A stretch of DNA of 64,000 nt, taken from contig OZ241889.1 in assembly GCA_965203355.1 (NCBI GenBank), forward strand, positions 3,104,001 to 3,168,000. Reading direction: 5' to 3'. The notes under the pieces are model-generated. The model was not told where the DNA came from, did no database searches, and saw only the letters and a program-made list of their open reading frames with translations. The DNA is from Candidatus Latescibacterota bacterium (GTDB taxonomy: Bacteria > Latescibacterota > UBA2968 > UBA8231). Below, piece after piece: positions 3,786-42,367 of this stretch; the first letter of the stretch is position 1, and each line of letters begins with the position of its first letter. A program made the position numbers and the translations under genes.

Positions 3786-3804
3786 CCCAAAAAAGACTTT
3801 TACA

Positions 3805-3840: not shown

Positions 3841-3894
3841 TCTGCCAAAATCCCGCTGTCTATCAACCTGCACCAACTTCCAACCGCACACTCA

Positions 3895-3954: not shown

Positions 3955-4099
3955 CTTTTAGCGCATTAAGCGGGTATCGCCAAGGGCCTGATCGACTCGA
4001 AAGAAATTTATTTTTACATTTTATAAAGCATTATTTAACAGTCACTTATAAACCTTAAAATCGAGAAAATCGGCGCGATAATCCCCCGCTGGTTACTAG

Positions 4100-4116
4100 T
4101 TGGCACGATGATTGCA
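4100..4116 (+). promoter_or_regulatory. Sigma54 (-24/-12) promoter
   Basis: TTGGCACGATGATTGCA matches the TGGCACG-N4-TTGC(A/T) consensus. An AT-rich, IHF-like tract lies at about 4000-4060. Confidence 0.85.
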
Positions 4117-4182
4117 TATTGCGATGTAGAAGCAATAACGTGCTGGTCACTGCAGACCAGCCATAAAGAAAGGAAGGCAGCC

Positions 4183-23438: not shown

Positions 23439-25568
23439 ATGACCAAGACGACCGAGGCCTCTGCCCGCGTCAATATCGACGCCCTGCTCCAAGACGCGGA
23501 CTGGAACTTGACTGACTGTGTAAGCGTACTGTTCGAGTACGCACTGCCCGACGGAACGCTGGCCGATTACGTGCTCTGCGATCGGCAGGGCCGCCCCATG
23601 GCGGTGTTGGAAGCCAAGCGCGCAAGCACCGATCCGATCACGGCCCAAGACCAGGGTAAGCACTACGCCGAACAGCTCGGTGTGCCGTTCGTGTTTCTGT
23701 CGAACGGCGAGGAAGTGTGGTTCCTCAACCGCGAGACCGATGCACACGCGCGCAAGATCGCGGGCGTCTATGCCCAAGACGATCTTGCGCGGCGGATCGC
23801 CGTACGTCAGAACCGCCGCGCACTGTCAACGGTCATCATTGACCGGAAGATCGTCGACCGCGATTACCAGATCGAATGCATCGAGGCACTTTCCGCCGAG
23901 GTCTCGCACGGGCGGCGCAAGCTGCTGGTCGAGATGGCGACGGGAACCGGCAAGACACGCACGGCGGCGGCGTTCATCAAGCGGCTGTTCGAAGCGGGGA
24001 TCGTCACTCGCGTCCTGTTCTTGGTCGATCGGATCGCGCTGGCCCGGCAGGCCGAGGATGCGTTCACCGACCATCTCCGAGACTATCCCTGTCACGTGTT
24101 GCGGCCCGGCCGCGGCTTTGACCGCGCCAAACGCATCGCGATTGCGACCCTACAGACCATGATCGCGGAGTACCGCACTCTTTCGCCGGGCTATTTCGAT
24201 CTCGTAATAACCGACGAATGCCACCGCTCGATCTACGGCAAGTGGAGTGGCGTACTACGACACTTCGACTCCATCCAGCTCGGCCTCACAGCAACACCCT
24301 GCACGGCGGATACCGACGCGCTCCTCGATCCCGAGGACGGGCGGTTCGTGCGCGACACGTTGCGCTTCTTCGAACTCGCCGAACCCACCTTCCGCTACAC
24401 GCTAGGCCGGGCCATCAAGGAAGGCCATCTAGTGCCCTACCACATATACAAAGCGATGACGGTAAAGACCGCCGCCGAAGGCGGGTTTGAAGTCAGGCGC
24501 GAGGAACTCGACTGGAGCGCGATGGACGGACAGACGCGGGAGGAATTCGAGGATCTGTTTTCTAACTCGGCCGCGATAACAGTCGATCCGCAGGCATTGG
24601 AACGCAAGTTCACGATTCCCGAACGTAACCGTGCCATGGTGCGCGAGTTCCGCGATGTACACGAGAAGGGTTTCATGGGCCGGGACGGCATCAGGCACTG
24701 GCCTGCATGGGGCAAGACCATCGTGTTCGCGGTGACCCGGCGTCATGCCGAGACCCTTGCGGTGATGTTCGACGAACACTTCGCGGACCGGAAGCCTCAC
24801 CCGATGACGCGCTATGCGGACTTCGTGGTCAGCGATGTAGGCGGCGGTCCCGCTCCCGACGCAAGTGCCATAATCAAGCGATTCAAGGAAGAGGAATATC
24901 CGAAGATACTCGTCAGCGTGAACATGCTTGATACCGGTTTCGATTGCCCGGAAGTCGTGAACCTCGTCATGGCGCGGTTCACGCGAAGCACCATCCTCTA
25001 CCGGCAAATGCGCGGGCGCGGTACACGCAAGGCGGCACACATCGGCAAGACGGGATTCACTATCTTCGACTTCGTCGGGGTAACGGACTTTCACGGCGAT
25101 GACCATGGAGATATAGCCCTCGGAGAACAGAGAGAATCCTACAAAACGGACAGGCCGCGTATGCTACTGACGCTCAACGTGGACGATCATATTGACCCGG
25201 AGAGCCGCGACTGGCTGACGCTCGACGAGACCGGACGCATCATCCGCTCTCCCGAACACGAGGCGTGTGCCGCCGAGATTGGCGTACGTTTCGAGTCGTG
25301 GCGTGGAGGGCATGGCGAGTTCGACGCGGAGCAGGCCCGCTGGGCCGGGCTGATCGGAAGCCGGATGCGGGCCGACGCGACGAGCATGGATGCTTTCGGT
25401 GTATGGAGCTTCGACGAACACCCCTTTGCCGCCCTCGGCGGCTACGATCAGGCGCGGCGCGTGTTCGGCGGTGAGGGAGCACTCGGCAAGCTGATCGCTG
25501 GAATCAACGCCGCGGTGTTCAGACAACAGCAGACAACCAGCCGGGCCGACAGCGCCGAGGAGCGATAG
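23439..25568 (+). CDS. hsdR: Type I restriction endonuclease subunit R (EcoAI/EcoEI-like)
   Basis: ADYVL...VLEAKR nuclease motif, MATGTGKT, DECH, LTATP, QMRGRGTR. Confidence 0.9.
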   Translation: MTKTTEASARVNIDALLQDADWNLTDCVSVLFEYALPDGTLADYVLCDRQGRPMAVLEAKRASTDPITAQDQGKHYAEQLGVPFVFLSNGEEVWFLNRETDAHARKIAGVYAQDDLARRIAVRQNRRALSTVIIDRKIVDRDYQIECIEALSAEVSHGRRKLLVEMATGTGKTRTAAAFIKRLFEAGIVTRVLFLVDRIALARQAEDAFTDHLRDYPCHVLRPGRGFDRAKRIAIATLQTMIAEYRTLSPGYFDLVITDECHRSIYGKWSGVLRHFDSIQLGLTATPCTADTDALLDPEDGRFVRDTLRFFELAEPTFRYTLGRAIKEGHLVPYHIYKAMTVKTAAEGGFEVRREELDWSAMDGQTREEFEDLFSNSAAITVDPQALERKFTIPERNRAMVREFRDVHEKGFMGRDGIRHWPAWGKTIVFAVTRRHAETLAVMFDEHFADRKPHPMTRYADFVVSDVGGGPAPDASAIIKRFKEEEYPKILVSVNMLDTGFDCPEVVNLVMARFTRSTILYRQMRGRGTRKAAHIGKTGFTIFDFVGVTDFHGDDHGDIALGEQRESYKTDRPRMLLTLNVDDHIDPESRDWLTLDETGRIIRSPEHEACAAEIGVRFESWRGGHGEFDAEQARWAGLIGSRMRADATSMDAFGVWSFDEHPFAALGGYDQARRVFGGEGALGKLIAGINAAVFRQQQTTSRADSAEER

Positions 25569-25572
25569 CACC

Positions 25573-27204
25573 ATGCCCATGACCCCAGAACTCCGGCGCG
25601 GCATCGACCGCATTCGCGATTATCTCTTCGGCGGCGGCTACCCGAACCCAGCCCAGAACGCCGAGCAGCTCAGCTTCCTGATCTACTTTTATATGTATGA
25701 GACGGCCGACGCGGCGCGGGTGCGGGCGGCGCAACGGCCGGGTGCCGCCCCGTATGCCAGCACCTTCGAGGGCGAATGGACACTGCGCGACCCGCGCAAC
25801 GCCCCGAGCCACGGCACGAGGGCCGTGTCCCGCGAACTCCTGCGCTGGTCGTCCTATGCACAAGCACTGAACGGCGAGCGGCTGGTCAACTGGGTACGGG
25901 AGGAGGTCTTTGCGTTCCATGCCGAACTCGCGGCAAACGGCATCACCGACTTCATGGACGGTGCCCGCTTGGTGATCGACGAGCCGACCGTGCTCACTCA
26001 GGTCATCAGCCAGTTGAACAACCTGCATCTCCACCGAGTGGACGCCGACACGAAGGGCGATCTGTTTGAGCACGTACTGCGCCAGATCAGGCAGGCGGGT
26101 GAGCTCGGTCAGTTTCGCACACCGCGCCATGTCATCCGTGCCTTGATTCGGCTGGTCGATCCGAGGATTGGCGAGACGATCTTCGATCCGGCGGCGGGCA
26201 CGGCGGGCTTCCTGGTCGGCGCGTGGGACCACATCCGTCTCGCCAATTCGTCTCCCGCTGGGATCGAGGAGGTCGAGGCCGACGGCAAGACCGTGCGGCG
26301 CGGCCTCGGTGACACGTTGAGTCGCGATGCGGTCAAGCAGTTGCAGGAGGCGACCTTTCACGGCGCGGACGTGGACCCGCAAATGGTCCGCCTCGCAACC
26401 ATGAACCTCACTCTGCGCGGGCTGGACCGGGTGCGCATCCTGCGGCGCGACGCGCTCACCCGCTCTCTCGACCGCCCGGCCAAGGCGGAGCTCGGCCTGC
26501 CGCCGGACGGGTTCGACGTCATCCTCGCCAATCCGCCATTCTCCGGGCGGCTGGACCGCGACCGCATCGTCGAGGCGGTGAAGGTCGGGCGCACGGCGCA
26601 GACCGAACTGCTGTTCCTGCAATACATGCTCAACCATCTGAAGGAGGGCGGACGCTGCGGCGTGGTGGTGCCGGAAGGCGTACTGTTCGGTTCCACCGCA
26701 GCGCACAGGGAGCTGCGCCGAAGGCTGATCGAGAACAACCGGGTGGAGGCAGTACTCTCGCTGCCGGGCGGCGTATTCAATCCCTATACCGGCGTCAAGA
26801 CCTCGGTGCTGGTGTTTCGCAAGGGTGGGACGACCGAGCGGGTGATGTTCCTCCACGCCGAGAACGACGGCTTCAAGCTCGATGCCAACCACGACCAGCC
26901 CATTGACGAGGACGACCTGCCCGGCCTGGTCGAGGCTTTCCGCGAGCGGGACGCACGATGGACGGCGTGGCGCGACCCCGACCCCGACGAGAACTGGGGC
27001 GAAAACTGGTGGTTCGCCGAGGCCGACGCCATCCGCGCCGCCGACTTCAACTTGAGCGCTAACTGGCACAGGCCGCTGAACAGGGCGAAGGTCGAGCACC
27101 GCGACCCGCTGGAGATTCTCAAGGAACTGCAAGGCATCGAGATGCAAATCCTCGGGGAGATCGACGAACTGGCCGAGGCGGTGCGGGGAGCAGTGGGGGA
27201 ATGA
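25573..27204 (+). CDS. hsdM: Type I RM N6-adenine methyltransferase subunit M
   Basis: GQFRTPRH, DPAAGTAGFL, NPPF, VPEGVLFG. Confidence 0.93.
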   Translation: MPMTPELRRGIDRIRDYLFGGGYPNPAQNAEQLSFLIYFYMYETADAARVRAAQRPGAAPYASTFEGEWTLRDPRNAPSHGTRAVSRELLRWSSYAQALNGERLVNWVREEVFAFHAELAANGITDFMDGARLVIDEPTVLTQVISQLNNLHLHRVDADTKGDLFEHVLRQIRQAGELGQFRTPRHVIRALIRLVDPRIGETIFDPAAGTAGFLVGAWDHIRLANSSPAGIEEVEADGKTVRRGLGDTLSRDAVKQLQEATFHGADVDPQMVRLATMNLTLRGLDRVRILRRDALTRSLDRPAKAELGLPPDGFDVILANPPFSGRLDRDRIVEAVKVGRTAQTELLFLQYMLNHLKEGGRCGVVVPEGVLFGSTAAHRELRRRLIENNRVEAVLSLPGGVFNPYTGVKTSVLVFRKGGTTERVMFLHAENDGFKLDANHDQPIDEDDLPGLVEAFRERDARWTAWRDPDPDENWGENWWFAEADAIRAADFNLSANWHRPLNRAKVEHRDPLEILKELQGIEMQILGEIDELAEAVRGAVGE

Positions 27205-28358
27205 GCTTCCCCGTCGTGCAATTGGGCGATCTCTGCGAGATGGATCGCCAAGGACTTGGCCCAGACGACTGCGCGGCGGCGGGACTTCCCTACGTCGGTG
27301 TCGAGAATGTCGAGTCGCACAATGGCACCATCAATTTCGCCAACGGATCGCGCGTCGGAAGCCAAAGGAGCACGACTTTCCAATTCGACGAGCGTCATAT
27401 CCTCTATGCAAAGCTCCGACCTTATCTGAACAAAGTCGCAACTCCAGATTTTTCGGGCAGATGCTCGACCGAGTTGGTTCCACTTCTCCCTCGGGACGGT
27501 ATCGATCGCGAGTTCATTGCGTATCTTCTTCGGCGAAACCAGACCGTCGAATATGTCATGGCGTCGGTAACCGGTTCCCGAATGCCGCGAACAGACATGA
27601 AAGTGCTGATGTCGCTACCGGTGTCCCTCCCCCCGCTCGACGAGCAGCGGCGGATCGTCGGCATCCTGAACCGGGCGGCGCGGATCGAGCGGCTGCGAAA
27701 GCAAGCGCAGGCGTTGATGCGGGAATTCACACCGGCATTGTTCGTGAAGATTTTCGGAGACCCGGCCACGAACCCGATGAGGTGGGACAAACAAAAACTT
27801 GGAGAAGTGTGCTTCGAAACCGAGCAACGCGATCCCGGAAAGAATCCTGCAAAGGAATTTCGGTACGTGGATATTTCCGGAATTGACAATGTCAGTAAGA
27901 AGATCAATGAGTTTCGCTTGATTCTCGGATCAGAAGCTCCGAGTCGCGCCCGGAAGGAAGTTAGAAGAAATGACGTACTCGTATCCTCCGTAAGACCGAA
28001 CCTCAACGCGGTTGCCATTGTTCCAGATCACTTGGATGATGGAATCGCGTCTACAGGGTTTTGCATATTGCGGGCTGACCGGAAAATCTTGGATCCCCTT
28101 TATCTGTTCCTGTACGTTACATCTGCCCATTTCATCGACATTATGGTCTCGAAAGCCCGGGGCGCAAACTATCCAGCTGTGTCCGACAAAGACATTAAGG
28201 ATATTCAAATCCCTTTACCGCCACTTCATATACAAAGACGTTTTTCGGACATTGCGGAAGCAGCGCAAAACGCTGTAGAGCGTATTGAGCTTGGCGACCG
28301 AACTGCCGCAGCATTGAGTGCCTCTCTCATGTCTCGTCTTTTGGAAGATGCGATATGA
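27201..28358 (+). CDS. hsdS: Type I RM specificity subunit S
   Basis: Two TRDs (KLRPYLNK, VRPNLNA) with conserved LPPLDEQRRIV / LPPLHIQRRF spacers. ATGA overlap with hsdM. Confidence 0.93.
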   Translation: MSFPVVQLGDLCEMDRQGLGPDDCAAAGLPYVGVENVESHNGTINFANGSRVGSQRSTTFQFDERHILYAKLRPYLNKVATPDFSGRCSTELVPLLPRDGIDREFIAYLLRRNQTVEYVMASVTGSRMPRTDMKVLMSLPVSLPPLDEQRRIVGILNRAARIERLRKQAQALMREFTPALFVKIFGDPATNPMRWDKQKLGEVCFETEQRDPGKNPAKEFRYVDISGIDNVSKKINEFRLILGSEAPSRARKEVRRNDVLVSSVRPNLNAVAIVPDHLDDGIASTGFCILRADRKILDPLYLFLYVTSAHFIDIMVSKARGANYPAVSDKDIKDIQIPLPPLHIQRRFSDIAEAAQNAVERIELGDRTAAALSASLMSRLLEDAI

Positions 28359-28460: not shown

Positions 28461-28985
28461 TCAGTCATCTGGATACTCCCTATCTGTATCAATCAAGTCC
28501 AGCCGCGTGGAAATCTCTTGCTGAGGCAGGAAGACCGTGCTGTCCGCTTGCCAGACTTTGAGGGCTTGAGTCAGTAGCGATTTATCACAGACCCCCTTGG
28601 CGGCGAGTTCGTCAATAACCCAAAGCACACCGTGTACACGAATTCCATTTTCGGCAGCGACTCTACGCAGTAAAGCGTCGCCGGTAAGCAGGATGCTAGG
28701 GTAAACTCGTGCAGTAACAAGACAGAAGCAGTCATTGGCAGAGAGGCGCGGATAGTGCTCCTTGAGTACGAGGGCTTGACCGACCTCAGCCGGTATCAGA
28801 TCATGCGTGATCATGCCGGCGTCGTCGAGCATTTGCCACTGGCTCTCGGAAAAGTCGAGTATTTCGAACTCGCGCACGGGCAATGGAACCACGAAGCGAT
28901 AGGGTAGATCGCATAGCACGGGCAATAGACCACCTTTGCGGAGGTCAATCAGACAGGAAGCATCGTTGACGATGATGCACGTCAC
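28461..28985 (-). CDS. PIN-domain (VapC-like) protein
   Basis: IIVNDASCLIDL, LSANDCFCL and LLTGDALLRR acidic motifs. The GTG start overlaps the upstream stop (GTGA). Confidence 0.8.
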   Translation of the reverse strand: MTCIIVNDASCLIDLRKGGLLPVLCDLPYRFVVPLPVREFEILDFSESQWQMLDDAGMITHDLIPAEVGQALVLKEHYPRLSANDCFCLVTARVYPSILLTGDALLRRVAAENGIRVHGVLWVIDELAAKGVCDKSLLTQALKVWQADSTVFLPQQEISTRLDLIDTDREYPDD

Positions 28986-30061
28986 TCGCTCGTCGGGCCG
29001 CTGATCTGCCGCTCGACGGAGGCGAGCGACTGATTGAGAAGTGCCGCTGCACGTACCGGCGAAATCAACTCTTCGCCCACTGCACGCGACACGAGACGTT
29101 CGAAACGATATGGCTTTTCGAAGGCCGCAAACCCGTGATCCTCGCCGATGGGCTCCGGTTCCGACTTGCGCCAAGAGCGCGCGAAGGTTGCGAAGGCGCG
29201 TTTGACGGCGCTGGAGGATAACACGCCGACCTGCCCCAGACGCATCAGGACGGCCGCCGCCGAGACGCCGTACATGTGCTTCAGGCGGATGATCTCGTAA
29301 TACGTAATCCAATGCCGGTCGCCGCCTACCTCGTCCCGCAGATGCTGGCTGGGGACAAGGAATGCGCCGGCGAACCTGTTCATGGCCGCCTCCATGTCGA
29401 TCGCTGGGTTTCCCGTAGAGCGGATGATTCGGTGGGCAAACTCGTGGGCCAGCGTGAATCGTTTACGCTCGACGTTGACCCGGCTGGACACCATAACGGC
29501 CTCGGCGATAGTCTCGCCACCCCGCAGTACGTGACACGACAGGCCGTTGATGCTCTCGGGGAGGTCGGCTTCGATCACCTTGATCCCCTTATCCTCGAGC
29601 AGTTCGCACAAGCTGGGAATGGGATCCATGCCAAGGTCCCAAGCCTTGCGGAGATGATCGGCCCTCTCGTCGATCTGGGTTTCGCTCGCGACGCAGTCGT
29701 ATCGGTATGCCTCCACCCAGCCAACGTCGGTTGGCATGTCGAGGATGTGCTCAATCACCAGATAACGTTCCAAGCTGTCGATAAGGATCGCTTCGGCTCT
29801 GGCACGGTCACGAGCCGAAGCACTGGAATGCCTTCGGAACTCCACCTCGTCGAGTGCCTCAACCTGTCCACTCATGAGAAAGTCCAGCGATACACTGAGA
29901 GCCTTGCCGAGCCCGACGAGTACAGCCGATGAAGGCAGCATCTTGCCCGCCTCGTACTTGCTAATCGCCTGAGCGGTCACCTTCGGAGTCATCGCGTCTG
30001 CGAGGGTACGCATGGAAAGGCCTGCCCGTTTGCGGGCGAGCCGAAGTCGCTGTCCGAACAT
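28982..30061 (-). CDS. XRE-family HTH fused to ImmA/IrrE (peptidase M78) domain
   Basis: RLRLARKRAGLSMRTLA...AISKYEAG HTH; RKRFTLAHEFAH (HExxH); E..MNRFAGAFLVP. Confidence 0.9.
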   Translation of the reverse strand: MFGQRLRLARKRAGLSMRTLADAMTPKVTAQAISKYEAGKMLPSSAVLVGLGKALSVSLDFLMSGQVEALDEVEFRRHSSASARDRARAEAILIDSLERYLVIEHILDMPTDVGWVEAYRYDCVASETQIDERADHLRKAWDLGMDPIPSLCELLEDKGIKVIEADLPESINGLSCHVLRGGETIAEAVMVSSRVNVERKRFTLAHEFAHRIIRSTGNPAIDMEAAMNRFAGAFLVPSQHLRDEVGGDRHWITYYEIIRLKHMYGVSAAAVLMRLGQVGVLSSSAVKRAFATFARSWRKSEPEPIGEDHGFAAFEKPYRFERLVSRAVGEELISPVRAAALLNQSLASVERQISGPTSE

Positions 30062-30087
30062 CCTCAGGGTCTCCTTGTTTAACCAGT

Positions 30088-30125
30088 GGTTGACAATTTA
30101 TGTATTCTTCAGGATATTGTAAACC
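30088..30125. promoter_or_regulatory. Overlapping divergent sigma70-like promoters inside a palindromic operator
   Basis: GGTTGACAAT-N18-ATTGTAAACC (9/10 inverted match). + strand TTGACA-N17-GATATT; - strand TTTACA-N17-TAAATT. Confidence 0.65.
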
Positions 30126-30213
30126 TCAAGTTGGTACCATCCACATAACCCCAACTTCGTGGCTGCAAACCGCCTGATGGTGCCAGAAACCAGATAGCAC
30201 AGAGGTGATTGAC

Positions 30214-30456
30214 ATGAAAAAATGCGAATTCAAAGTGAACGGCGAAACCTTCTTCGCGGACCAACAGTCGGTCGACGTGGCCGTGTTGCTGCGGGTCGCG
30301 TTCGAGGGAAAAGCGATCGGTGGGGATCCCGATAAGACAGGGTACGTGCTGAGGGTACCAGACTCGGAGGAGACCTTCGTTTCAGGCGAGACGGTGGACC
30401 TCGACAAGTACAACGTATTTCGGGCGACCCCGGAAAAGGGTGCGCCGTTCGCATGA
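30214..30456 (+). CDS. Ubiquitin-like (beta-grasp) protein
   Basis: 80 aa. FKVNG...LLRVAF...YVL...ETVDL...F pattern of multi-ubiquitin domains; C-terminus KG-APFA; operonic with E2 and E1. Confidence 0.7.
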   Translation: MKKCEFKVNGETFFADQQSVDVAVLLRVAFEGKAIGGDPDKTGYVLRVPDSEETFVSGETVDLDKYNVFRATPEKGAPFA

Positions 30457-30878
30457 GCAAGAACTCCGAGCGCATGGCCGCGGAACTCGTCGAGTTGCGC
30501 CATCGGCTGGGCCCGTTCACCGCGCCCAACCAACAGGGCGGTGCGGACGGCGTTTGCTTCGAGTACCGGATCGAGGACGGTAGCCGCACCGGGGACACCG
30601 TAACCTTGGCAGTCGCAGTCCACGAAAACGAGGGCGAGTGGCCCGAAGTGGCACCGCACTGGGTGTATATCTCGCCGCCAGATACTGTTCTGGCCGAGCA
30701 AGTGAAGGGGGGGCAGCCGCCGGGAGCCGTCGAGACTTGGCAATGCGCCGAGGGGCACGACTGGATGGCGATCAGCGCTCCGCCGAGCGATTTCTGGGAT
30801 CGGATCGACACACCGAACGGAAAGAACATGCAGACCTATCTGGACAGGCATATCCGCAGAATCTGGAGTGCTCGTTGA
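30453..30878 (+). CDS. Prokaryotic E2/UBC-like protein
   Basis: WPEVAPHWVYISPP (UBC-like xPxxPP) and WMAISAPP..FW motif. ATGA overlap with the Ubl gene. Confidence 0.7.
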   Translation: MSKNSERMAAELVELRHRLGPFTAPNQQGGADGVCFEYRIEDGSRTGDTVTLAVAVHENEGEWPEVAPHWVYISPPDTVLAEQVKGGQPPGAVETWQCAEGHDWMAISAPPSDFWDRIDTPNGKNMQTYLDRHIRRIWSAR

Positions 30879-32374
30879 GGCACCGCATCGTCCTGCGCGA
30901 AGTGCTGCACCGACAGCTCGCGGATCATCTGCTCAGCGGCATGCGGCACGGTGGGATGCAAGAGGAGGCCTGTCTTGCACTGTGGCACCGAGCCGACGGG
31001 TTCAACCGCTATACCGGGATACTCGGTGAGGTATTTCTCCCGGAAGATGGCGATCGCGATCTGCAGGGCAACGTTACGGTCCACGGCAAATACCTCAACC
31101 GCGTTCTGGACCATGCGATCGAGGCTCAGGCGGGCGTCGCGGTCCTTCACAGCCATCCCGGTCCCGGTTGGCAAGACCTGAGCGGCGTGGACAACGACAC
31201 GGAGCGCAACATCATCGCGCCCTTCATTCGAGAGACCGGGCTGCCTCTGCTCGGGCTGACGATGGGTTCAGACGGTGCCTGGAGCGCACGGTTCTGGCAG
31301 GAGTCCGTGTGCGGCCGGATCGCACCTGTGCATTGCACGGATGTTCGGCGGGTCGGGCCGCGCCACACCGGGGCGGACTGGCATCCGGACGCGTATCCGC
31401 CCTACGCTCGGCGTCCGAATCTGGTGAGGACCATCGACAGTTGGGGTATCGATGCACAGGCAAGGCTGGCGCGTACGCATGTTTGCGTGGTCGGTGCAGG
31501 AAGCGTTGGTTCGATCGTGCTCGAATGTCTCGCACGTACCGGGTTCGAAGAGATCACCGTCCTCGACCCGGACCTAGTCGAGGACAAGAACCTCGACCGT
31601 CTGATCTACGCTGATCGGCACTGCCTGGGATTGCGTAAAGCGGAGGTAGCCGCGGCACACCTCCGCAGAGTCGCCACTGCGCATCGTCCGGTCATTCGCC
31701 CGGTGCCATTTTCGATCCGCACCGAGCAGGCATACCGTCTGGCCGCCGACGCCGACATTATCCTGTGCTGTGTCGACAACGCCGAGGCGCGCGAGGTTAT
31801 CAATCACCTCGCCTACGCAAACTGCCTTCCGTTGATCGACGGCGGCGTTCTCGTGGAGTCGCGAGAGCGTCTGTTGTCCGCGAAATGGCAGGCCCATCTG
31901 GTTGGCCCCGACATGCAATGCCTGCGTTGTCGCGGTCAATACAACAGCGGTGATGCTCGAGATGAGCGGATGGGTATCAGGCGTCACGGACGCTACATCA
32001 ACGACGGTGTCGCGGATGGGCCGGAGCCGGGCCAGAACACGATCGGGTTCTGTGGCGTCGTGGCGGCCGAGCAGACACGAATGCTCATCCGCTACCTGAT
32101 CGGCGAGAATTGGTGGCACGACAGCGCACCTATCATCGGCCAATGGTCGTTTGAACACCGTTTCGTGGAGGCCCAAACCGAACCGTTCGAACACCCGGGT
32201 CGGTGCGTCGCGAGTTGCGAGTTCTCGCGTGATCGCCAGGGGCTCGGTGAAGGCGGAAGGCCCAAATACCCGTTCGCAGAGGTACCACAAGAAGATTGGT
32301 CTACCCTCATGAGGCGTCAATACCGGCAGGTTCGGACGAAGATGTGCCGAGCAATTGCAGCAGTACGATCCTGA
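30875..32374 (+). CDS. JAB/MPN metallopeptidase fused to ThiF/E1-like adenylyltransferase
   Basis: QEEAC...LHSHPGPGWQDLSGVD (E..HxH..S..D); VVGAGSVGS, DPDLVEDKNLDRL, CVDN..AR, CLRC. TTG start overlaps the E2 stop. Confidence 0.88.
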   Translation: MRHRIVLREVLHRQLADHLLSGMRHGGMQEEACLALWHRADGFNRYTGILGEVFLPEDGDRDLQGNVTVHGKYLNRVLDHAIEAQAGVAVLHSHPGPGWQDLSGVDNDTERNIIAPFIRETGLPLLGLTMGSDGAWSARFWQESVCGRIAPVHCTDVRRVGPRHTGADWHPDAYPPYARRPNLVRTIDSWGIDAQARLARTHVCVVGAGSVGSIVLECLARTGFEEITVLDPDLVEDKNLDRLIYADRHCLGLRKAEVAAAHLRRVATAHRPVIRPVPFSIRTEQAYRLAADADIILCCVDNAEAREVINHLAYANCLPLIDGGVLVESRERLLSAKWQAHLVGPDMQCLRCRGQYNSGDARDERMGIRRHGRYINDGVADGPEPGQNTIGFCGVVAAEQTRMLIRYLIGENWWHDSAPIIGQWSFEHRFVEAQTEPFEHPGRCVASCEFSRDRQGLGEGGRPKYPFAEVPQEDWSTLMRRQYRQVRTKMCRAIAAVRS

Positions 32375-32714
32375 CGCATCTGTTCGGAGTCCGCCTTGCC
32401 ACTTCATTGTTGCTTCCTCTCCGACCCATCTTGATGCACTGTGGCCGGTGTAGCGCACCATCTATCTGGTGTTCACACAAAGCCTTTGTCAGAATCCGGG
32501 AACAACGGAAACCATCAGAATCATAACAGATTGCGTGATACAGAAAGTTTCCTTCTTTCTGTGGCTGCTAGCTCTGAACCCACCTCAAAAGGCCTCTGGC
32601 CTGACCAGTCGATTTCGCGCCGCCAGGCTCTTCGCTTCCGCCTCATCCAGAAGCCCAAGCCAGTCTCGCGTTCTCAACAGGCTGTTCGCAACATATTTTC
32701 ACTAGGTTCGCAAA

Positions 32715-32731
32715 TTGGCACGGCTCTTGAA
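32715..32731 (+). promoter_or_regulatory. Putative sigma54 promoter
   Basis: TTGGCACGGCTCTTGAA (-24 perfect, -12 TTGA variant). Perfect inverted repeat ACAGAAAG-N7-CTTTCTGT at 32540-32562 upstream. Confidence 0.5.
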
Positions 32732-32923
32732 TACGGACTACTACGACCCTTCTTTAATGCTTTAACGGGTTGAATTTACTTTTTTAGAAAGGGCCAAATT
32801 AAAAGGAACCAATGCGGTAATCAGCCATCTTTAGAGAAGGATCATTGCCCAAAAAAAGGGGCTTCATACATCTGCGCTCCTGCTATCTCTAAGCAGGGCT
32901 AATTCATTGAAAGGAGGCACATC

Positions 32924-34747
32924 GTGCTGACTCGTTTAGTTCTATTCGCACTCGCTGTTAGTCTATGGGGCTGTGGAGACGACAGCGATCCGCCGCCCAC
33001 TGCGGCAGTCGTTGAGCCGACGGTTCTGCGGCCAAGCGGGGCGTTGCAACCTTGGGATCTGTCGCCCATTGTTCCGATTGACTCGGTTCGCTCCATGCCG
33101 GCGGGTACGACCGTATTCCTGCGCACGGAGTTTGCCCGCGGCGAACTGGCCGATCTCGAGATGACGCTTGTCCAAGTGGTCAATGATTTTTTGCCGCCCA
33201 TGCCGGTCTATATGCTCGAAGCCTCCGATCCCGTTTTGATACAGCTTGGGGGCATTGCTCAGGGGATGAGCGGTTCGCCCATTTTTACCGAGCAAGGCAC
33301 TTGGGGCGCCATTGCCTACGGATTTGATTCTCAAGACAGCCCGCCGTACTACTTTTTTGCCACCCCCATAGAATGGATGGTCGGCACGCGAGGCACGGTG
33401 CCAGCGGCCAAACCCATGGCTACCTGGGCTGGCAACCGCATTACCCCTTTGGAGATCCCCTTGTTGAGTGCGGGACTCAATCGGGTGCATCCGCGGCCTG
33501 AAGCAAGATCGTCCCTCCTAAGCAAAGCCAGCACCGCTAGTCTGACCCAAGAGCGCCAAGAGAGCTTTGAGGCCGGTCGCCCCTTGGTCGTTGGGTTGTT
33601 GCTCGGTGAGCATACGCTGGGTTCGCTGGGAACCATATCGTACGTCGATGGCGACCGGGTCTATGGATTTGGGCATCCTATGTCTAGTGCTGGGCCGGTG
33701 GAACTGCCCATTATAGAGGCACGGGTGCTCGGCGAAATTTCCAACTTGTCTGCCCCGTACAAGTTTGCAACCCTGAACCCAACGGTGCGGGGCACCCTGA
33801 CTGAAGACCGCTTGCCAGGGGTACGCGGCGTACTCAATGCGGAGCCTGCATTAGTACCTGTTAAGAGCGTCTATGCTTTTCCGTCGGGGGGCACGGTCGA
33901 ACTTACGCACCAGATGGCCGTCGGTCTCGAACCACATACCGTGACCGGTGTGGTCGCCAGTGCTTTTTTTGAGCCTTTGTTCAACCGACTTGACAACGAT
34001 CCCAATCACAGTATCCGCGTTACGACGGATGTTTCTTTTACCGGCTCTGATTCAACACTCACTCGCTCTCGGCTCTACTCCTCGTCAAGCGGACAACTTG
34101 TGAGAGCAATTGACAGTGCCTATGGCGACGTGTTAGACGCGCTTACGGAACTTACGACACGGAACGATTACGCCCTATATGTACGCGAGGCCGATGTGCA
34201 TGTCGAAGTGATTCCCGAGACTCGTTTTGCCACCGTGACAAAGATTGCGGCCGACACGGTTATCAGTCTTGGGAGTACGCTGGACATTACCACTTTGCTG
34301 CGCGTGGGAAGGGTCCGCGACCGGGAAGTCAAACTGGCCCTCAGCATACCGGATACGCTTCCCCCTGGCTTTTACCAACTCGAAGTGGGGGCCGCCGCAT
34401 CATTAGCGGACGCTGCCCTGTCGTTCGACAGCCCATCGTCGTCTGGCCTTTTTGGGGGCGAGGAAACGCTCGACGATGTTTTTGCGCGACTGAACAAACC
34501 CGCCGAAAATGTCGCCTTAAAAGCTCGCTTGACGTTTGTCGAGGCACGCAGAGAAGCTGAATTCTCCGATCCGTCGACTGATCTTGAAGGAGATGACGGC
34601 GAACCCACCGGAGATTTTAGTGATTTTTGGCCTCCGGACGCTTTCTCTTTCGACTCTTCTCCCGCGCCTATCTCTGCACAAGAAGACATCGATTTAGTGC
34701 TTGCAGGGACTCAAAGCCTTGCGATAGAAGTGGTAAAAGGAGAGTAG
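32924..34747 (+). CDS. SpoIVB peptidase S55-domain lipoprotein
   Basis: Lipobox LWGC; GGIAQGMSGSP, ATPIEWM, GFGHPM. AGGAGG RBS. Confidence 0.85.
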   Translation: MLTRLVLFALAVSLWGCGDDSDPPPTAAVVEPTVLRPSGALQPWDLSPIVPIDSVRSMPAGTTVFLRTEFARGELADLEMTLVQVVNDFLPPMPVYMLEASDPVLIQLGGIAQGMSGSPIFTEQGTWGAIAYGFDSQDSPPYYFFATPIEWMVGTRGTVPAAKPMATWAGNRITPLEIPLLSAGLNRVHPRPEARSSLLSKASTASLTQERQESFEAGRPLVVGLLLGEHTLGSLGTISYVDGDRVYGFGHPMSSAGPVELPIIEARVLGEISNLSAPYKFATLNPTVRGTLTEDRLPGVRGVLNAEPALVPVKSVYAFPSGGTVELTHQMAVGLEPHTVTGVVASAFFEPLFNRLDNDPNHSIRVTTDVSFTGSDSTLTRSRLYSSSSGQLVRAIDSAYGDVLDALTELTTRNDYALYVREADVHVEVIPETRFATVTKIAADTVISLGSTLDITTLLRVGRVRDREVKLALSIPDTLPPGFYQLEVGAAASLADAALSFDSPSSSGLFGGEETLDDVFARLNKPAENVALKARLTFVEARREAEFSDPSTDLEGDDGEPTGDFSDFWPPDAFSFDSSPAPISAQEDIDLVLAGTQSLAIEVVKGE

Positions 34748-34886: not shown

Positions 34887-35525
34887 CTAACGCCATTCCT
34901 CTGCGGTTGCGATCCGATTGACCGCTGTTGCCAGCCATTGGAATGCGGCTAATCTGTACAGAACACTAAAATCGTCAATCATTTCAGCCACGCGATGGAC
35001 ACTCGACCGCCAATTGAAGTGCTTTAGGCGACGCCCTTGTAGGCCGCTCGCCTGACTCAGAAGTTCGCGGATGCGTTTTTTGGGATCGGCTAACTCTTCA
35101 AGCCTTGTCACATCTGGCATGTCTAGGGGCTGAGTACCATTGGGATTGCCCGCAGCCCTTCTCAACGCAGCCTCGTTGATGAGCAACCACGCTTCCTGCA
35201 TCCGCACGGGCACCACGCAGACAACGCGTACCGAACCTTCCACGGAACTTTCCGCTAAAGCTCTACAAATTTCTGCCTCGCGCTCCTCGATTGAGTCACT
35301 CTCTGCGTCCCTATGCACAAAGAGCAGGTCGCAAGGATACAGTTCAACGCCTCTGTCAATGCGTTCAGAAAGTTTCCTAGGAGAGGGAGATAGACGGCGC
35401 AGGTCGGCAAACTCCGCTTGGATGGGAATCGCACCGCAGTACTGACGTAGCAGCCAAGTAAGAATCGGTAGAAGGGCACGGTCAGACGATCCGTCCGCCA
35501 CCAGCGTGTAGCGCAGTTCCTGCAT
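34887..35525 (-). CDS. DUF4276-like (TOPRIM-like) protein
   Basis: VADGSSD, FVHRDAE, VPVRMQEAWLL and EELADPK motifs. Lies downstream of an AAA_21 ATPase. Confidence 0.65.
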   Translation of the reverse strand: MQELRYTLVADGSSDRALLPILTWLLRQYCGAIPIQAEFADLRRLSPSPRKLSERIDRGVELYPCDLLFVHRDAESDSIEEREAEICRALAESSVEGSVRVVCVVPVRMQEAWLLINEAALRRAAGNPNGTQPLDMPDVTRLEELADPKKRIRELLSQASGLQGRRLKHFNWRSSVHRVAEMIDDFSVLYRLAAFQWLATAVNRIATAEEWR

Positions 35526-35541
35526 CCGGCACCAGATTTGC

Positions 35542-36990
35542 CTAGTAAAAAGACAGAAGAAGTTGCTGCATATCCTCCCTATCGACTACCCGCTTCTGTG
35601 TTGATGTCTCTATGTAATTCTTAGGCAGCACCGGGTTCAGATAAGGAAGCAGATCGCCGCGAGCGGCATCTTCGCTCACTTTGGCTCGCCAAGTATCGGA
35701 CAGGCCGAGAAAGTGAGCTTTTTTGCAGAGGCGTCCTTCCTCATCTATGGCCTCTCTTGCCTTTACAAATACGACGCTATCGTCCGGGACTTGTTGGAAT
35801 ACTGAAGGCGAGTGAGTATTGACGATCACTTGGCGTAGTGGATTGTCCTCTCCAACAGGCTCTTGGGTATCCACCGCAATATCCCTGAGCAGCTGCAGTA
35901 TAGCCGGGATCCGCGCCGGATGAATACCGTTTTCCGGTTCTTCCAAACAAATCACTCCCTGCATCTGCGGGTCGCTCTCCAAGACAGCCAAAGCGAGAAA
36001 GCGCAGGGTACCATCCGACAGGGCACGTGCCGGATGTAAGGTCCCCTCTTCGTTTTTTACATACAACGTCAATAGCTCCCGCTTCTCATCCCGCTCTATG
36101 TGAATATCATTCACACCCTCGATGAGTTCGGCCAAGCGGTTGGCGATCTGGCTATATACTTTTTGAGGGACCGAATCTACATGCCGCCCCAAGCGATACA
36201 ACGTAGCCGCCAGATAGCGACCATCCGCCTTTAAGTGAGTAGGAGCACCAAATTCATCGGGGCTTCTAAGTGCCGAAGGCTCCAGTTGCAACATTTGCCA
36301 AGATTCCATCTCTCGGCGAGCGACCAATGCCGTAGGGCTTTCCGCCGCATTGGCTGTGGAAAGCACGGTGCGCGGTAAATTAGCGGCGGATCGGGGCAAA
36401 GGACGCCCACTGCTGCCGCCATCCTGATGTAGTTTTATGACTCTGTTTTCTCCCTCGCCTGTAGTTGAAATGAAATAGGGGGCGTGGCGCTTGCCGTACA
36501 CGGCGGATTTGCGCCAGTCCTTTGCACTGTTGGGAAATAAGAGATGTCGCGGAGCATCACCGTGGGTGATATGGACTAATTCTTCTTTGACGATAGCGAG
36601 ATTACCTCGCACCAAGCTGTCGGCCGTCTCTCGGTAAGCAAGCTCTAGGGAATAGCGCAAAAATGTAATACTGGCCTTTGCCTCCTGCCCTAAGTCGTCA
36701 ATGGCCCACCGCGGCACGATCATCTCTGCCTCAAAGGTCATATGCTCAGCATAGTGGTCTCCCACGCGGTGAAAAAGGTCGCGCACATGTGCGGTGCGGC
36801 AGTCTTGATTGCGCACGGCGGCAGCGGCCTCCATGAGCGTGTGATTGGCCAATGCACTCAGAAACCGAATCGCGTCAAACAGGTTTGACTTACCCACCCC
36901 ATTCGGCCCAACTACACAGGTAAACGGACCGAGGTACAAATCCACATCCACCAGATTTTTGAAGTTAGCGACTTTCAGTCGAGTCAACAT
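35542..36990 (-). CDS. AAA_21/ABC-type (OLD/SMC-like) ATPase
   Basis: VANFKNL, GPNGVGKSN, LSDGTLRFL, LEEPENGIHP, NTHSP. Confidence 0.9.
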   Translation of the reverse strand: MLTRLKVANFKNLVDVDLYLGPFTCVVGPNGVGKSNLFDAIRFLSALANHTLMEAAAAVRNQDCRTAHVRDLFHRVGDHYAEHMTFEAEMIVPRWAIDDLGQEAKASITFLRYSLELAYRETADSLVRGNLAIVKEELVHITHGDAPRHLLFPNSAKDWRKSAVYGKRHAPYFISTTGEGENRVIKLHQDGGSSGRPLPRSAANLPRTVLSTANAAESPTALVARREMESWQMLQLEPSALRSPDEFGAPTHLKADGRYLAATLYRLGRHVDSVPQKVYSQIANRLAELIEGVNDIHIERDEKRELLTLYVKNEEGTLHPARALSDGTLRFLALAVLESDPQMQGVICLEEPENGIHPARIPAILQLLRDIAVDTQEPVGEDNPLRQVIVNTHSPSVFQQVPDDSVVFVKAREAIDEEGRLCKKAHFLGLSDTWRAKVSEDAARGDLLPYLNPVLPKNYIETSTQKRVVDREDMQQLLLSFY

Positions 36991-39736: not shown

Positions 39737-40357
39737 TTATCCTGCGCCCAGTTCCTCGTCGAATAGCCGTTTGGCTTCGGCTTTGGCCCATTGCTCGCAT
39801 GCACGTGCTGCTTGGGTGGTCGGCTCGCGAACGTCCTGGGGAGCCTGAAGGTTGAGCTTGTCGAGCGCACCTTCCACCGCTTTTTGGAGCTGTTGTTGCT
39901 TCCATCGCCATTCGTCGGAATTGAGATACAGAACGGGCCATGCCAGTACTTCCTTGCGGCCGTCAAGCAGCTTCTGCAAAACATCCCGCGATGCCTCACG
40001 ACGGTTGTATTCGAGGTCAAGCTCGTAGCAGAGCATCTCATCGCGGTAGGTTTCCACCCGCTCTTGGACGAAGGAACATTGCTCTTGGGATGGAGGGATG
40101 GGGCCTGGGCTTGGCGTACTTGGCTCGCCAACGCTCTGACGCCGCTTGCGCTTGTTACTTACAATGACGCCCGCGGTGAATCCAATGGCTATACCGGTGG
40201 CTATACCGGCTAGAAACCATGTTATTTCATTATTTTCTTCTACCGAATCTTTCGGTACAACAGCGGCTCCTGCAATGGCTCCTGAAGCGGCTCCTGCAAT
40301 GGCTCCTGCAATGACCGCCGTACCAGCGGCTAAAGACACAATACTCTTCGTACTCAT
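39737..40357 (-). CDS. Glycine-zipper-like membrane protein, last gene of the dynamin operon
   Basis: Two Gly/Ala-rich hydrophobic segments followed by KRKRR and a helical C-terminal domain. The start directly abuts the upstream stop. Confidence 0.7.
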   Translation of the reverse strand: MSTKSIVSLAAGTAVIAGAIAGAASGAIAGAAVVPKDSVEENNEITWFLAGIATGIAIGFTAGVIVSNKRKRRQSVGEPSTPSPGPIPPSQEQCSFVQERVETYRDEMLCYELDLEYNRREASRDVLQKLLDGRKEVLAWPVLYLNSDEWRWKQQQLQKAVEGALDKLNLQAPQDVREPTTQAARACEQWAKAEAKRLFDEELGAG

Positions 40358-42367
40358 TTAGGCACTCCTCGCTTCGCTCGCTAGGTCATGGTCATATTCA
40401 GCTTTAAGTTCTTCTACTTGCAGTTTGCGCCGATCTAATTCCACAAGCTGATCGTCAATCTTTTGCTGCTCAACCTCATCTAACGAAGCTCCTTTTTCCA
40501 ACTCTTCTAAAAAATTCCGCTTCGCTCTGAAAATGTGCTGCAAACTACCTTCCATTGTATTAAGGGCCTCTAGTCCGAGCCGTTGCAACTCGGTGGCAAT
40601 TTTTTCAAATAATTCGTCAAAAGTTTCTCTCAGAAGCGATTCAAGTTCGTCTTCCAACGCCTTAGCAGCCTTCTTTTTGCCTAGTCCTGTACCACAGATC
40701 CTCTCCCACCAAGAAACTGCAGACCTCACAGCGTTCTCCAGAGTTTCTCGGTTAAGATCGTTTGTCAGCTCCGTTTCTGCATCCTTGCAAATTCTATAAG
40801 GCGGGAGGAGTAGTAAGTGATAGTTTGGTATATATGGTATATATATATCAATGGTCGATCCACTCGTTAGGAATATATCTGATAAATCACTCTCCGACTG
40901 ATTGAGGATGCGTTCGGTTTCTGCCACGATCTTCCTGATAGCTTCCACGAGAATAGAACGACTATCATACAGATGGCTCCCAATACTCATCGCTACTCCT
41001 GCCATATTGTCGATGCTAGGACAACTTTTAAGGTCATCTTCGATCTTTCTCATGATTTCACGAAGCGTTTCATTAATGCTCCTTTGCAGGGGATCTCTTG
41101 CTTCATCAAGAGCCTTCCTGAACTTCTTCATCGTGTTATCAACAACTAAATTTATCGAAACAAGGTTTTCTCTTGTCCGAGCGAAGTCTTTGCTGCGATT
41201 TTCCTGCGATAGGTTAATAGCATTGCGATTAGCCGTCAATATCGCCTTGTCTTGCGCGATGCTTTTATCGGCCTTTTCGAAGACGCTGTCCAAACGTGTT
41301 TGATGCGCCTCAATAATACCATCTCCTTTAGTCGCGATGATTTGTCGTTCAATGACATTGCGAAGTCGCTCAAGCCCATGTCTCTCTGGCTCTAGATAGC
41401 CCTTGCTTGATATTTCCCTCAAATTCCATGTCAAAACCTCAGGCAGGGGGCGACCTGCTTCTTGCATGGCGGAAACAAGCGCACCGAGACCGCTGACGAG
41501 TACGATCTGCTCGTCGTTTCCGAACAGTGCCTTTCCCCTCAAGTCTTCGCTATCTCGAGTTTTCCGAATGTGTCTCCGAATGGCTGCTTCGTCGGGCTGC
41601 GTATCGCACTTGTTCACCGCGATGATGCGCCGGCGAGGATCGATGTGTGTCAAGTACTTGTCAATAAACTTCACGTCATCCTCAGTCAGGCCTGCTTGCC
41701 CGGCAAAAGTGACGTACACCACAGCATCAGCGCGTTCGATCCACTCGCGGGTAATTTTGTCGCGCACCGGGTTCGGATCATTGGTTCCAGGGGTATCGGC
41801 TACTGTCACTTGATGCAGCCACGGACGATCGGCCCACAATTGCACCTGGTTGACATACGCGCTGTATATGCCACCGCTGTTACATACCGCCACAAACTGG
41901 CCGAGCTTATCAAGCCCATCCTCGGAAATGACGCACGGAGGGTTAGTAAGCAGATCGGATTCCCTAAGTCTTTCCGCACGAGCAGTCTCCCGTGCCTCTT
42001 CCAGGTCCTGCGCGGACCGTTCATCTAGCTTGCTAGCTTCCACCACCTCGCGAAATTCGTCAGGCGTGTACAACGTAGCCTCAACTCGCTCCGTTTCATC
42101 TCCTTCCATGAGTGCGATTTTGGCCGTCATAGTCGTAACGTGACTCGGCAACACCTCCTCGGAGAAAAGTAGGGCGTTAAGCAGGGTTGACTTCCCGTTG
42201 TTCATCTGGCCACAGACCGCGAGGATGAAGCGCTCTTCTTGTAGATTGGATTTTGCCTCCTGAAGTGCCTCCACGTCTGCCTTTAGCAATTCATGGTTTT
42301 CAACGACGCGGTCGTACCACTCGCAGAGGGTAGCTTTGTGCTTTTGGTGAATAGCTAGACCGTTCAT
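40358..42367 (-). CDS. Bacterial dynamin-like GTPase 3
   Basis: G1 GQMNNGKST, G2 TMT, G3 DTPG, G4 NKCD, long helical C-terminal half. Confidence 0.88.
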   Translation of the reverse strand: MNGLAIHQKHKATLCEWYDRVVENHELLKADVEALQEAKSNLQEERFILAVCGQMNNGKSTLLNALLFSEEVLPSHVTTMTAKIALMEGDETERVEATLYTPDEFREVVEASKLDERSAQDLEEARETARAERLRESDLLTNPPCVISEDGLDKLGQFVAVCNSGGIYSAYVNQVQLWADRPWLHQVTVADTPGTNDPNPVRDKITREWIERADAVVYVTFAGQAGLTEDDVKFIDKYLTHIDPRRRIIAVNKCDTQPDEAAIRRHIRKTRDSEDLRGKALFGNDEQIVLVSGLGALVSAMQEAGRPLPEVLTWNLREISSKGYLEPERHGLERLRNVIERQIIATKGDGIIEAHQTRLDSVFEKADKSIAQDKAILTANRNAINLSQENRSKDFARTRENLVSINLVVDNTMKKFRKALDEARDPLQRSINETLREIMRKIEDDLKSCPSIDNMAGVAMSIGSHLYDSRSILVEAIRKIVAETERILNQSESDLSDIFLTSGSTIDIYIPYIPNYHLLLLPPYRICKDAETELTNDLNRETLENAVRSAVSWWERICGTGLGKKKAAKALEDELESLLRETFDELFEKIATELQRLGLEALNTMEGSLQHIFRAKRNFLEELEKGASLDEVEQQKIDDQLVELDRRKLQVEELKAEYDHDLASEARSA

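Follow-up and report, generated by a model that had tools for sequence, protein, structure and literature searches.

The stretch analysed here (hereafter the window) comprises 64,000 nucleotides from a Candidatus Latescibacterota bacterium (assembly GCA_965203355.1, contig OZ241889.1, positions 3,104,001 to 3,168,000) and harbours, at 30214-32374 on the forward strand, a three-gene operon which an earlier note, made from the sequence alone, had read as a bacterial ubiquitination-like (Bub) system with apparently non-cysteine chemistry. The first gene (30214-30456, +) encodes a BubA-like ubiquitin-like protein (Ubl) of the beta-grasp type, 80 aa long, with the C-terminal tail G76-A-P-F-A80; the second (30453-30878, +) a BubB-like protein of 141 aa with the UBC fold of E2 enzymes, in which Ser108 and His69 are candidate catalytic residues; and the third (30875-32374, +) a 499-aa fusion of a JAB/JAMM domain (approximately residues 1-165) to a ThiF-type E1 adenylation domain (approximately 185-450) that contains Tyr374. 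The ATG of the E2 gene overlaps the TGA of the Ubl gene (ATGA), and the JAB-E1 gene begins with a TTG overlapping the E2 TGA (TTGA), this start being an ATG at the equivalent position in related loci. The motifs quoted in the earlier note were all present, namely Ubl G76-APFA, E2 WMAISAPP (Ser108), and E1 CLRC (C349/C352) and GRYIND (Tyr374). On the opposite strand lie a gene for a 359-aa fusion of an Xre-type helix-turn-helix (HTH) domain to an M78 (ImmA/IrrE) zinc peptidase (28982-30061, -), a putative repressor/sensor similar to CapH-CapP fusions or to RmrA, and a gene for a 174-aa PIN-like (DUF3368/VapC-like) nuclease (28461-28985, -), which begins with a GTG that overlaps the stop codon of the HTH-M78 gene (GTGA). 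Between the two transcription units, overlapping promoter-like sites arranged face to face and divergently (30090-30123) constitute a candidate operator, a function that we infer.

Comparison with related loci (tblastn and blastn) delimited a conserved block of 3.9 kb with sharp ends on both sides, running from the PIN stop at 28461 to the E1 stop at 32374. Homology at the DNA level extended from 28498 to 32377, with 66-82% identity, and none was found beyond. Translational coupling of the three forward genes, claimed earlier, held up well, as their order and overlaps were kept in 21 of the 24 genome loci found with the E1; the extent of the unit had been underestimated, since the divergent HTH-M78 and PIN-like genes belong to the same conserved cassette, present with all five genes in 19 of those 24 loci. 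An Ubl operon with the same order and overlaps, as part of the complete five-gene cassette, was also found in 5 of 80 metagenome loci retrieved with the PIN gene. The ratio of nonsynonymous to synonymous substitution rates (dN/dS) ranged from 0.05 to 0.24 for each of the five genes when compared with six copies, and the proportions of synonymous differences (pS) co-varied among genes. This purifying selection, together with the same order and overlaps across loci, indicated that the genes of the Ubl operon are real, far beyond chance.

The genomes carrying the cassette are labelled as Pseudomonadota (several orders), Spirochaetia, Binatia, Thermodesulfobacteriota, Gemmatimonadota, Latescibacterota and Bryobacterales, at least seven phyla by their labels, and the flanks vary from locus to locus and abound in transposase, integrase and defence genes, the last comprising OLD+UvrD, AAA_21, MmeI-type restriction-modification (RM), Mrr, Schlafen/AlbA_2 and DUF2357+PDDEXK genes. 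The family is rare, the centre genome being the only one to encode the E2 among 401 genomes sampled from one phylum. Judged from these comparisons, the cassette moves horizontally between phyla as one unit. No convincing repeats were detected in its flanks, the best being 17 nt long with 82% complementarity and one arm inside the PIN gene, and neither tRNA genes nor Rfam families were found in the window. Decayed copies also occur: at L022 (6001-7448) the E1 ends at residue 332 and is followed by an open reading frame (ORF) for a DDE transposase, at L023 (6001-6997) just a C-terminal piece of the E1 is left, and at L002 (3845-4111) the PIN match is limited to residues 1-89.

The JAB-E1 protein matched Pfam ThiF (4.7e-36), the sole domain that family libraries recognise in the Ubl operon. 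Its best match among solved structures was Citrobacter BubCD (9ea4), with an E value of 5.8e-22 when the single sequence was the query and 8.4e-30 with a 12-sequence profile; the runner-up was TcdA (1e-17), and TcdA, Uba4 and MoeB all came far behind BubCD. The alignment with BubCD spanned residues 4-366 (3-328 with phmmer), covering both the JAB and the adenylation domains, and made E30, H92, H94 and D106 of the JAB domain fall on E28, H91, H93 and D104 of BubCD, and R242 on R227. The JAB motif, described earlier as intact, was confirmed (E30, H92-S-H94, D106). Ten residues (E30, H92, H94, D106, R242, D301, C349, C352, Y374 and C448) were invariant in 9/9 sequences drawn from operons with and without the accessory gene bubE (hereafter BubE+ and BubE-). 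The mutants described by Ye, Gong, Chambers & Corbett (bioRxiv 10.1101/2024.11.21.623953) place Bub chemistry on Y370 of the E1 and S333 of the E2, Y370F identifying the essential tyrosine. Our sequence alignment with BubCD stops at residue 366-372, just short of Tyr374; this tyrosine was nevertheless invariant in 12/12 and 9/9 JAB-E1 sequences, the second set containing canonical and actinobacterial relatives, and since canonical BubE+ proteins share it, Tyr374 is by homology the probable counterpart of the crossover-loop tyrosine (Y370) of Bub. The claim that the E1 crossover lacks a cysteine stood for the loop proper but not for the C-terminal end of the crossover region, where a near-invariant Cys393 was found; it is conserved 11/11 in the window's family (alignment A3) and missing from 3/3 actinobacterial BubE-less sequences and from the one canonical relative aligned. 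PADLOC gave weak matches of JAB-E1 to E1-E2 and BilD models, confined to the adenylation domain, and among phages a single record showed a partial E1 match. JAB-E1 homologues as a whole numbered 1296.

The UBC fold proposed for the 141-aa protein was recovered by structure prediction from a 41-sequence alignment, with a predicted local distance difference test score (pLDDT) of 91.6 and a predicted TM-score (pTM) of 0.86. When the model was compared with 48,161 chains using VIA-align, the first match was Citrobacter BubB (9eav_D; 118 of 128 residues aligned, root-mean-square deviation 3.8 Å) at Z 8.6, a value only slightly above the level reached by unrelated models, and more than 30 E2 enzymes followed at Z 5-7.9, including Atg3, Atg10, Cap2 (Z 5.7), UFC1 and ubiquitin E2 variant (UEV) domains, such as that of Tsg101 (Z 5.9). 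The E2 assignment therefore rests on the match list, composed throughout of E2 proteins, and on sequence links. Foldseek returned no match for the model at E ≤ 0.001, and BubB was found by VIA-align only. In the atlas, the nearest clusters carry Prok-E2_E. An exhaustive HMMER search collected 85 representatives at E ≤ 1e-3, which occur either as stand-alone proteins of 125-133 aa or as proteins of 200-286 aa with an N-terminal Ubl domain, that is, Ubl-E2 fusions. No relative of the E2 was found in viral contigs, nor did plasmids match the E2 relative P0136. Four residues were invariant in 41/41 sequences (P64, P68, S108, W115), another five were near-invariant in the same alignment (H69, W104, D116, Y129, H133), and the family has no conserved cysteine. 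Ser108 belongs to a W-x-x-x-S motif common to the window's E2 and the canonical Bub E2s. All four BubE+ E2s examined have WSRH plus an Asp, and in the E2 of locus L104 this Asp precedes the Ser by 34 residues, the same spacing as between D299 and S333 in Citrobacter BubB. The BubE- E2s all have PPHW, accompanied by H-S-R in actinobacteria or by I-S-[AR]-P-P in the window's family.

For the 80-aa protein, a beta-grasp fold had been set beforehand as a test of the Bub reading, and the AlphaFold2 model (pLDDT 87.5) showed it, residues 77-80 of the tail being disordered (pLDDT <50). In a Foldseek search of the PDB, the top 8 matches were all bacterial multi-ubiquitin or BubA proteins (TM-score 0.54-0.68), followed by ubiquitin itself, the E values of those eight (6e-3 to 2e-2) lying above the 0.001 line of the tool. 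Neither the Ubl nor the E2 had a match in Pfam, PADLOC, NCBIfam or PHROGs, and searching the PDB with either of them, by sequence or by profile, gave nothing relevant. The Ubl is exactly 80 aa long in all but a few of its homologues (among 120 listed of 199), and the GAPFA tail ends 27 of 28 cassette copies. Each of the five tail codons shows synonymous changes, which indicates that the tail has been selected as protein and not merely for ribosome binding at the gene that follows. In the Ubl-E2 fusion relatives, G-[RK]-T-P-V-A occurs at the domain junction, and BubCD is reported to cut BubAB after a conserved Gly (bioRxiv 10.1101/2024.11.21.623953); both favour trimming after Gly76. The terminal hydrophobic-Ala is conserved across the BubE-less branch, and Gly is not, although Gly76 is invariant inside the window's family. 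The mature end of the Ubl is thus uncertain and could, from the sequence, be G76, A77 or A80.

Type I Bub systems (formerly 6E.1/DUF6527) consist of BubAB or split BubA and BubB, BubCD and BubE, and according to the preprint "all Bub operons possess bubE", the catalogue in Table S1 being one of "DUF6527-containing operons" (bioRxiv 10.1101/2024.11.21.623953). A catalogue built in this way misses a BubE-less branch by construction. DUF6527 was found in none of the 134 flank ORFs of 20 loci and was absent from four of five whole genomes carrying the cassette, the fifth having two DUF6527 genes more than 1 Mb from the cassette; the downstream ORFs of five actinobacterial relatives contained none either, and the positive controls L104 and L113 were detected by the same search. 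A possible DUF6527 remnant of 86 aa at 32310-32567 (-) was picked up by a custom hidden Markov model (HMM) with an E value of 0.0096 among 7017 ORFs, matching the variable N-terminal part only, and Pfam gave nothing at E ≤ 10; it was taken as a chance hit. The spacer that follows the E1 (32375-32923) is low in GC (48%) and is not common to other loci.

A tree of 16 JAB-E1 sequences, unrooted and based on a small sample with two long branches, set 12 BubE- proteins apart from 4 BubE+ ones with 100/99 support. The window's JAB-E1 is 26-29% identical to the BubE+ relatives and 32-36% to the actinobacterial BubE-less ones, which appear as sister to the window's family in this tree. The latter are carried by the plasmids Nocardioides pCHL, M. 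avium pP7a and Clavibacter pCCa, by Pseudarthrobacter and by Paractinoplanes (L024), and their annotations go no further than ThiF, multiubiquitin or hypothetical. They share with the window's operon the three genes in the same order, PPHW in the E2 and an Ubl ending in hydrophobic-Ala, and two of them (Clavibacter and Pseudarthrobacter) also have a divergent HTH-M78 fusion; they differ in the H-S-R of their E2, with His before the Ser, instead of I-S-A-P-P, and in having neither Cys393 nor the PIN gene. Genes for a sigma-70 factor, an AAA/SMC-like ATPase and a DEAD helicase lie beside the actinobacterial operons at L027, L028 and L024, which suggests another conserved extended layout. The branch shows that the BubE protease is dispensable within it and that the helper residues of the E2 serine are not fixed.

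Regarding the divergent pair, the HTH-M78 protein matched Pfam Peptidase_M78 (4.6e-16) and HTH_3 (1.6e-9), as well as the PADLOC models RmrA (6.3e-45), capP (2.6e-13) and capH (2e-5). RmrA presumably belongs to the system named RosmerTA. The HExxH residues of the peptidase (H206, E207, H210) were invariant in 25 sequences. The PIN-like protein gave a weak match to Pfam PIN (E 0.0039) and one to PADLOC PDC-S70 (2.6e-6) but none to the RmrT model, its nearest atlas clusters were DUF3368/PIN (score 0.96), and its acidic residues D8, E41, D85 and D103 were invariant in 24 sequences. Upstream of the Ubl operon we found a promoter-like site on the + strand (TTGACA-17-GATATT, 10/12) and, facing it, another on the - strand (TTTACA-17-TAAATT, 9/12), five such sites being present in the 4.7 kb scanned versus 1.4 expected. 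The -35 boxes of both sites together make up an imperfect inverted repeat (GGTTGACA ... TGTAAACC), a candidate operator, whose GTTGACA and TGTAAAC are conserved in 13 aligned intergenic regions. Because the two sites overlap at their -35 boxes, a single bound protein would influence transcription in both directions. Within the 5' leader predicted for the Ubl operon lies a 10-nt inverted repeat, TGGTACCATC / GATGGTGCCA (30132-30141/30176-30185), with possibly compensating changes in L001; RNAalifold yielded no consensus structure for the 5' untranslated region over 13 loci.

Relatives of this pair were met in other company. Among the 80 metagenome loci, 75 contained the PIN gene (53-64% identity) without the Ubl operon, and in 72 of these 75 the HTH-M78 gene was present as well (53-68% identity), the remaining three being cut by the contig end. 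Beside HTH-M78 and divergent from it, 54 of the 80 loci had a DUF2188 gene; a patatin gene came after it in 26 loci and a CD-NTase gene in 23, the layout of a type I cyclic-oligonucleotide-based antiphage signalling system (CBASS), with the qualification that many of these loci are near-identical copies and that Pfam was run on 7. At L053 (1344-5504), and also at L057, L088, L050 and others, a pair approximately 60-65% identical to that of the window faces DUF2188-patatin-CD-NTase, and the window's own cassette has no DUF2188. Other divergent cargos were a TIR gene (L080), DuOB+DUF488 (L086) and a canonical Bub operon with DUF6527 (L104). Since relatives of the pair, 57-68% identical, face CBASS, TIR and canonical Bub operons elsewhere, HTH-M78+PIN behaves as a portable controller and the Ubl operon as its cargo. 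Family membership and these modular contexts point to a repressor/sensor role for HTH-M78 and a toxin-like role for the PIN protein.

There is precedent for such an arrangement. CapH and CapP, a repressor and a peptidase, are encoded upstream of and opposite diverse immune operons and are induced by DNA damage, the signal being single-stranded DNA arising from damage or infection; CapH-CapP fusions exist, DUF2188 operons are noted, and a figure legend describes a DISARM system with a vapC-like gene and a CapH-CapP fusion (bioRxiv 10.1101/2022.04.27.489752). Of 544 Bub operons, 168 (31%) are reported to have CapH+CapP (bioRxiv 10.1101/2024.11.21.623953). The window's controller resembles CapH+CapP in combining an HTH repressor with an HExxH M78 peptidase, in its divergent upstream position and in its range of cargos, which for the published pair includes CBASS, DUF2188 and ubiquitin-like operons, but it is a single 359-aa polypeptide with an N-terminal HTH, always followed by the overlapping PIN gene, and its stronger PADLOC match is RmrA. 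In VapKSC, CapK/CapS-like regulators have been co-opted to control a VapC toxin, and in 88 of 443 cases CapK/CapS regulators immediately follow RM systems (EMBO J 2026, PMC13373217). This system, as described there, provides a precedent for a DNA-damage-sensing "Cap" regulator over a PIN toxin and for a position downstream of RM genes, as in the window, although its sensor consists of a kinase plus a STAS domain instead of HTH-M78 and there is no homology between the proteins.

Taken together, the most probable explanation, which we hold with some but by no means full confidence, is that the three forward genes encode a Bub-type conjugation system of the "6E"/Prok-E2_E lineage, from a branch without BubE, and that they make up the cargo half of a mobile cassette of five genes, with the mechanism and control proposed below. 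The resemblance to Bub and the non-cysteine reading put forward in the earlier note were both borne out, the E1 being a BubCD homologue over its JAB and adenylation domains, and Ser108 and Tyr374 aligning with the published catalytic residues. Like Type I Bub, the operon has a beta-grasp Ubl, a UBC-fold E2 with an invariant Ser, and a JAB-E1 whose JAB site is intact and whose invariant Tyr is the predicted crossover-loop residue, all encoded in an identical order. Separate genes for Ubl and E2 are also on record for Type I Bub (the "DUB+E1 fusion" rows of Table S1, and Rhizobium phaseoli), as is the association with HTH and M78 genes. Unlike Type I Bub, it lacks BubE/DUF6527, its Ubl ends in GAPFA, and its E1 is approximately 40 aa longer and has the family-specific Cys393. 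Bil (BilABCD) and the Cap2/Cap3 proteins of type II CBASS also employ E1, E2 and JAB machinery in bacterial immunity, but through catalytic cysteines; in addition, Bil has a separate JAB protein and a two-domain E1, and CBASS conjugates its CD-NTase, of which there is none here. To our knowledge, Bub systems are the only ubiquitin-like pathways that run without catalytic cysteines. Bub chemistry, its general architecture, the split Ubl/E2 genes and HTH-M78 regulators are already known. In the literature covered, comprising one part of seven of Table S1 and with the final NSMB 2026 version lying outside it, we found no description of a BubE-less branch, of the altered E2 site, of the GAPFA tail or of the HTH-M78/PIN packaging.

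By homology with Bub we infer a relay from Ubl-AMP through Tyr374 and Ser108 to target lysines. The JAB-E1 protein would adenylate the C-terminus of the 80-aa Ubl, which would then pass as an oxyester to Tyr374 on the E1 crossover loop and, as a second oxyester, to Ser108 of the E2-like protein, to be joined finally to lysines of target proteins. The JAB domain would trim the tail (APFA or part of it), remove the Ubl from targets, or both; being the only peptidase left in the system, it must cover tail trimming and is the sole candidate for deconjugation. As for control, the divergent HTH-M78 protein would repress both overlapping promoters until a stress signal (compare single-stranded DNA for CapH+CapP) led its own zinc peptidase to inactivate it, so that the Ubl operon would be expressed only under attack or stress, and the co-transcribed PIN nuclease would be a toxin-like partner of the HTH-M78 controller.

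Several observations weigh against this interpretation. The window has no BubE gene downstream of the E1, where 549 bp of non-coding DNA are found. In the E2, the His that Type I Bub has at Ser+2 (H335) is replaced by Pro110, and its nearby Asp (D299) by His69; a hhalign comparison with the canonical Bub E2 of a Rhizobium phaseoli plasmid (DUF6527 operon) set S108 on the Ser of W-S-R-H, P110 on its His, and H69 on the Asp that follows the YPxxAP flap, but this alignment is weak (probability 36.6%, E 3.7e-4). Ser108 may accordingly be activated differently or less well than the canonical Bub Ser. Among the actinobacterial BubE-less Ubls, which end in VGGVA, CAPVA or RADVA, the CAPVA/RADVA pair has no nearby Gly. 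Cys393 could take part in catalysis in the window's family. The Bub literature consulted states that no phage protection has been shown for Bub operons. Finally, the Ubl operon does not need the PIN gene, since at L020 its three genes coexist with another HTH-M78 set: at this locus (1878-4745), in a Latescibacterota genome, the Ubl operon lies opposite genes for DUF6932, an HTH_3+M78 protein of 425 aa and Beta_protein (PF14350).

Some of these points are shared with other explanations. The HTH-M78 and PIN genes could form a self-contained toxin-antitoxin module (RosmerTA- or VapBC-like) for addiction or abortive infection, with the Ubl operon unlinked and served by a constitutive promoter of its own; this would account for the 72 of 75 metagenome loci in which the pair occurs without the operon, for the antitoxin model (RmrA) with which PADLOC labels HTH-M78, and for L020, where the operon does without this particular pair. 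It would sit poorly with the fact that HTH-M78+PIN in other loci always faces a divergent cargo at a fixed distance (CBASS, TIR or Bub), as in the CapH+CapP layout in its published description, with the overlap of the -35 boxes of the HTH-M78 and Ubl promoters, and with the renewed presence of a divergent HTH-M78 gene in the L020, Clavibacter and Pseudarthrobacter relatives, and we consider it unlikely. Less probable still, in our opinion, is that there is no oxyester relay, the E1 forming a thioester on Cys393 or acting straight from the adenylate, with the E2-like protein serving as a non-catalytic, UEV-like adaptor. The conservation of Cys393 in 11/11 members of the window's family, its location at the C-terminal end of the crossover region, the loss of the His and Asp partners of the canonical Bub Ser and the UEV domains among the structural matches (Tsg101) all fit such a scheme. 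Cys393, however, is absent from three actinobacterial relatives and a canonical one, whereas Tyr374 is invariant (9/9), as is Ser108 (41/41) within the W-x-x-x-S motif that canonical Bub E2s also have, and the near-invariant His69 could, judging by its position in the alignments, replace the lost His/Asp partners.

We also considered a sulfur-carrier or cofactor pathway of the ThiS/MoaD-ThiF/MoeB type instead of protein conjugation. The best NCBIfam matches of the E1 were indeed ThiF/MoeB models, all of them far below their cut-offs, and the Zn-binding CxxC...C is retained. On the other hand, there is no rhodanese or sulfurtransferase domain and there are no thiamine or molybdopterin genes nearby, the operon includes a UBC-fold E2 and a JAB domain and sits within a mobile defence island, and BubCD outranks TcdA, Uba4 and MoeB by far, which makes this pathway exceedingly improbable. 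The statement in the earlier note that no CD-NTase, E3 or sulfur-carrier gene is adjacent agreed with our survey of 21 neighbouring ORFs, which contained none.

Next to the cassette on its upstream side, as had been noticed before, lies a type I RM system (23439-28358, +) with hsdR (709 aa), hsdM (543 aa) and hsdS (385 aa). On the other side, a predicted lipoprotein of 607 aa (32924-34747, +) with a weak match to SpoIVB/S55 peptidases (5.6e-6) is not kept beside the cassette elsewhere. It is followed by an AAA_21 ATPase of 482 aa with a 212-aa partner (34887-36990, -), a candidate defence pair by its PADLOC matches to HEC-01A (3.4e-103) and HEC-01B (3.2e-24), and a HEC-01-related pair adjoins the cassette in L007. 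Three genes for dynamin-family GTPases (669, 629 and 592 aa) stand in a row at 39737-46028 (-), with weak PADLOC matches to LeoA/LeoBC; a 206-aa ORF without family follows them, and GC falls to 44-46% at 40500-41500. With its type I RM, HEC-01 and Leo-like dynamin genes the window is, by predicted gene content, a defence-island context, and it is this genomic context that points to a putative defence role of the Ubl operon.

A bolder extension of the Bub interpretation, which we regard as conceivable though doubtful, is that the BubE-less branch constitutes a mechanistically distinct third Bub type, characterised by a non-Gly Ubl end, a relocated Ser108-His69 pair, a JAB domain serving both maturation and deconjugation, and the HTH-M78/PIN switch. 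The Ubl would then be activated at its terminal hydrophobic-Ala, or at Ala77 after removal of a tripeptide. If this were true, the switch would unleash an RNase and at the same time induce tagging, a two-armed response moving as a 3.9-kb unit. This compact, self-regulated cassette of 3.9 kb is well suited to tests of Bub tagging in E. coli, and the controller that it has in common with CBASS and TIR operons is the best contextual argument so far for Bub tagging as an induced immune or stress response.

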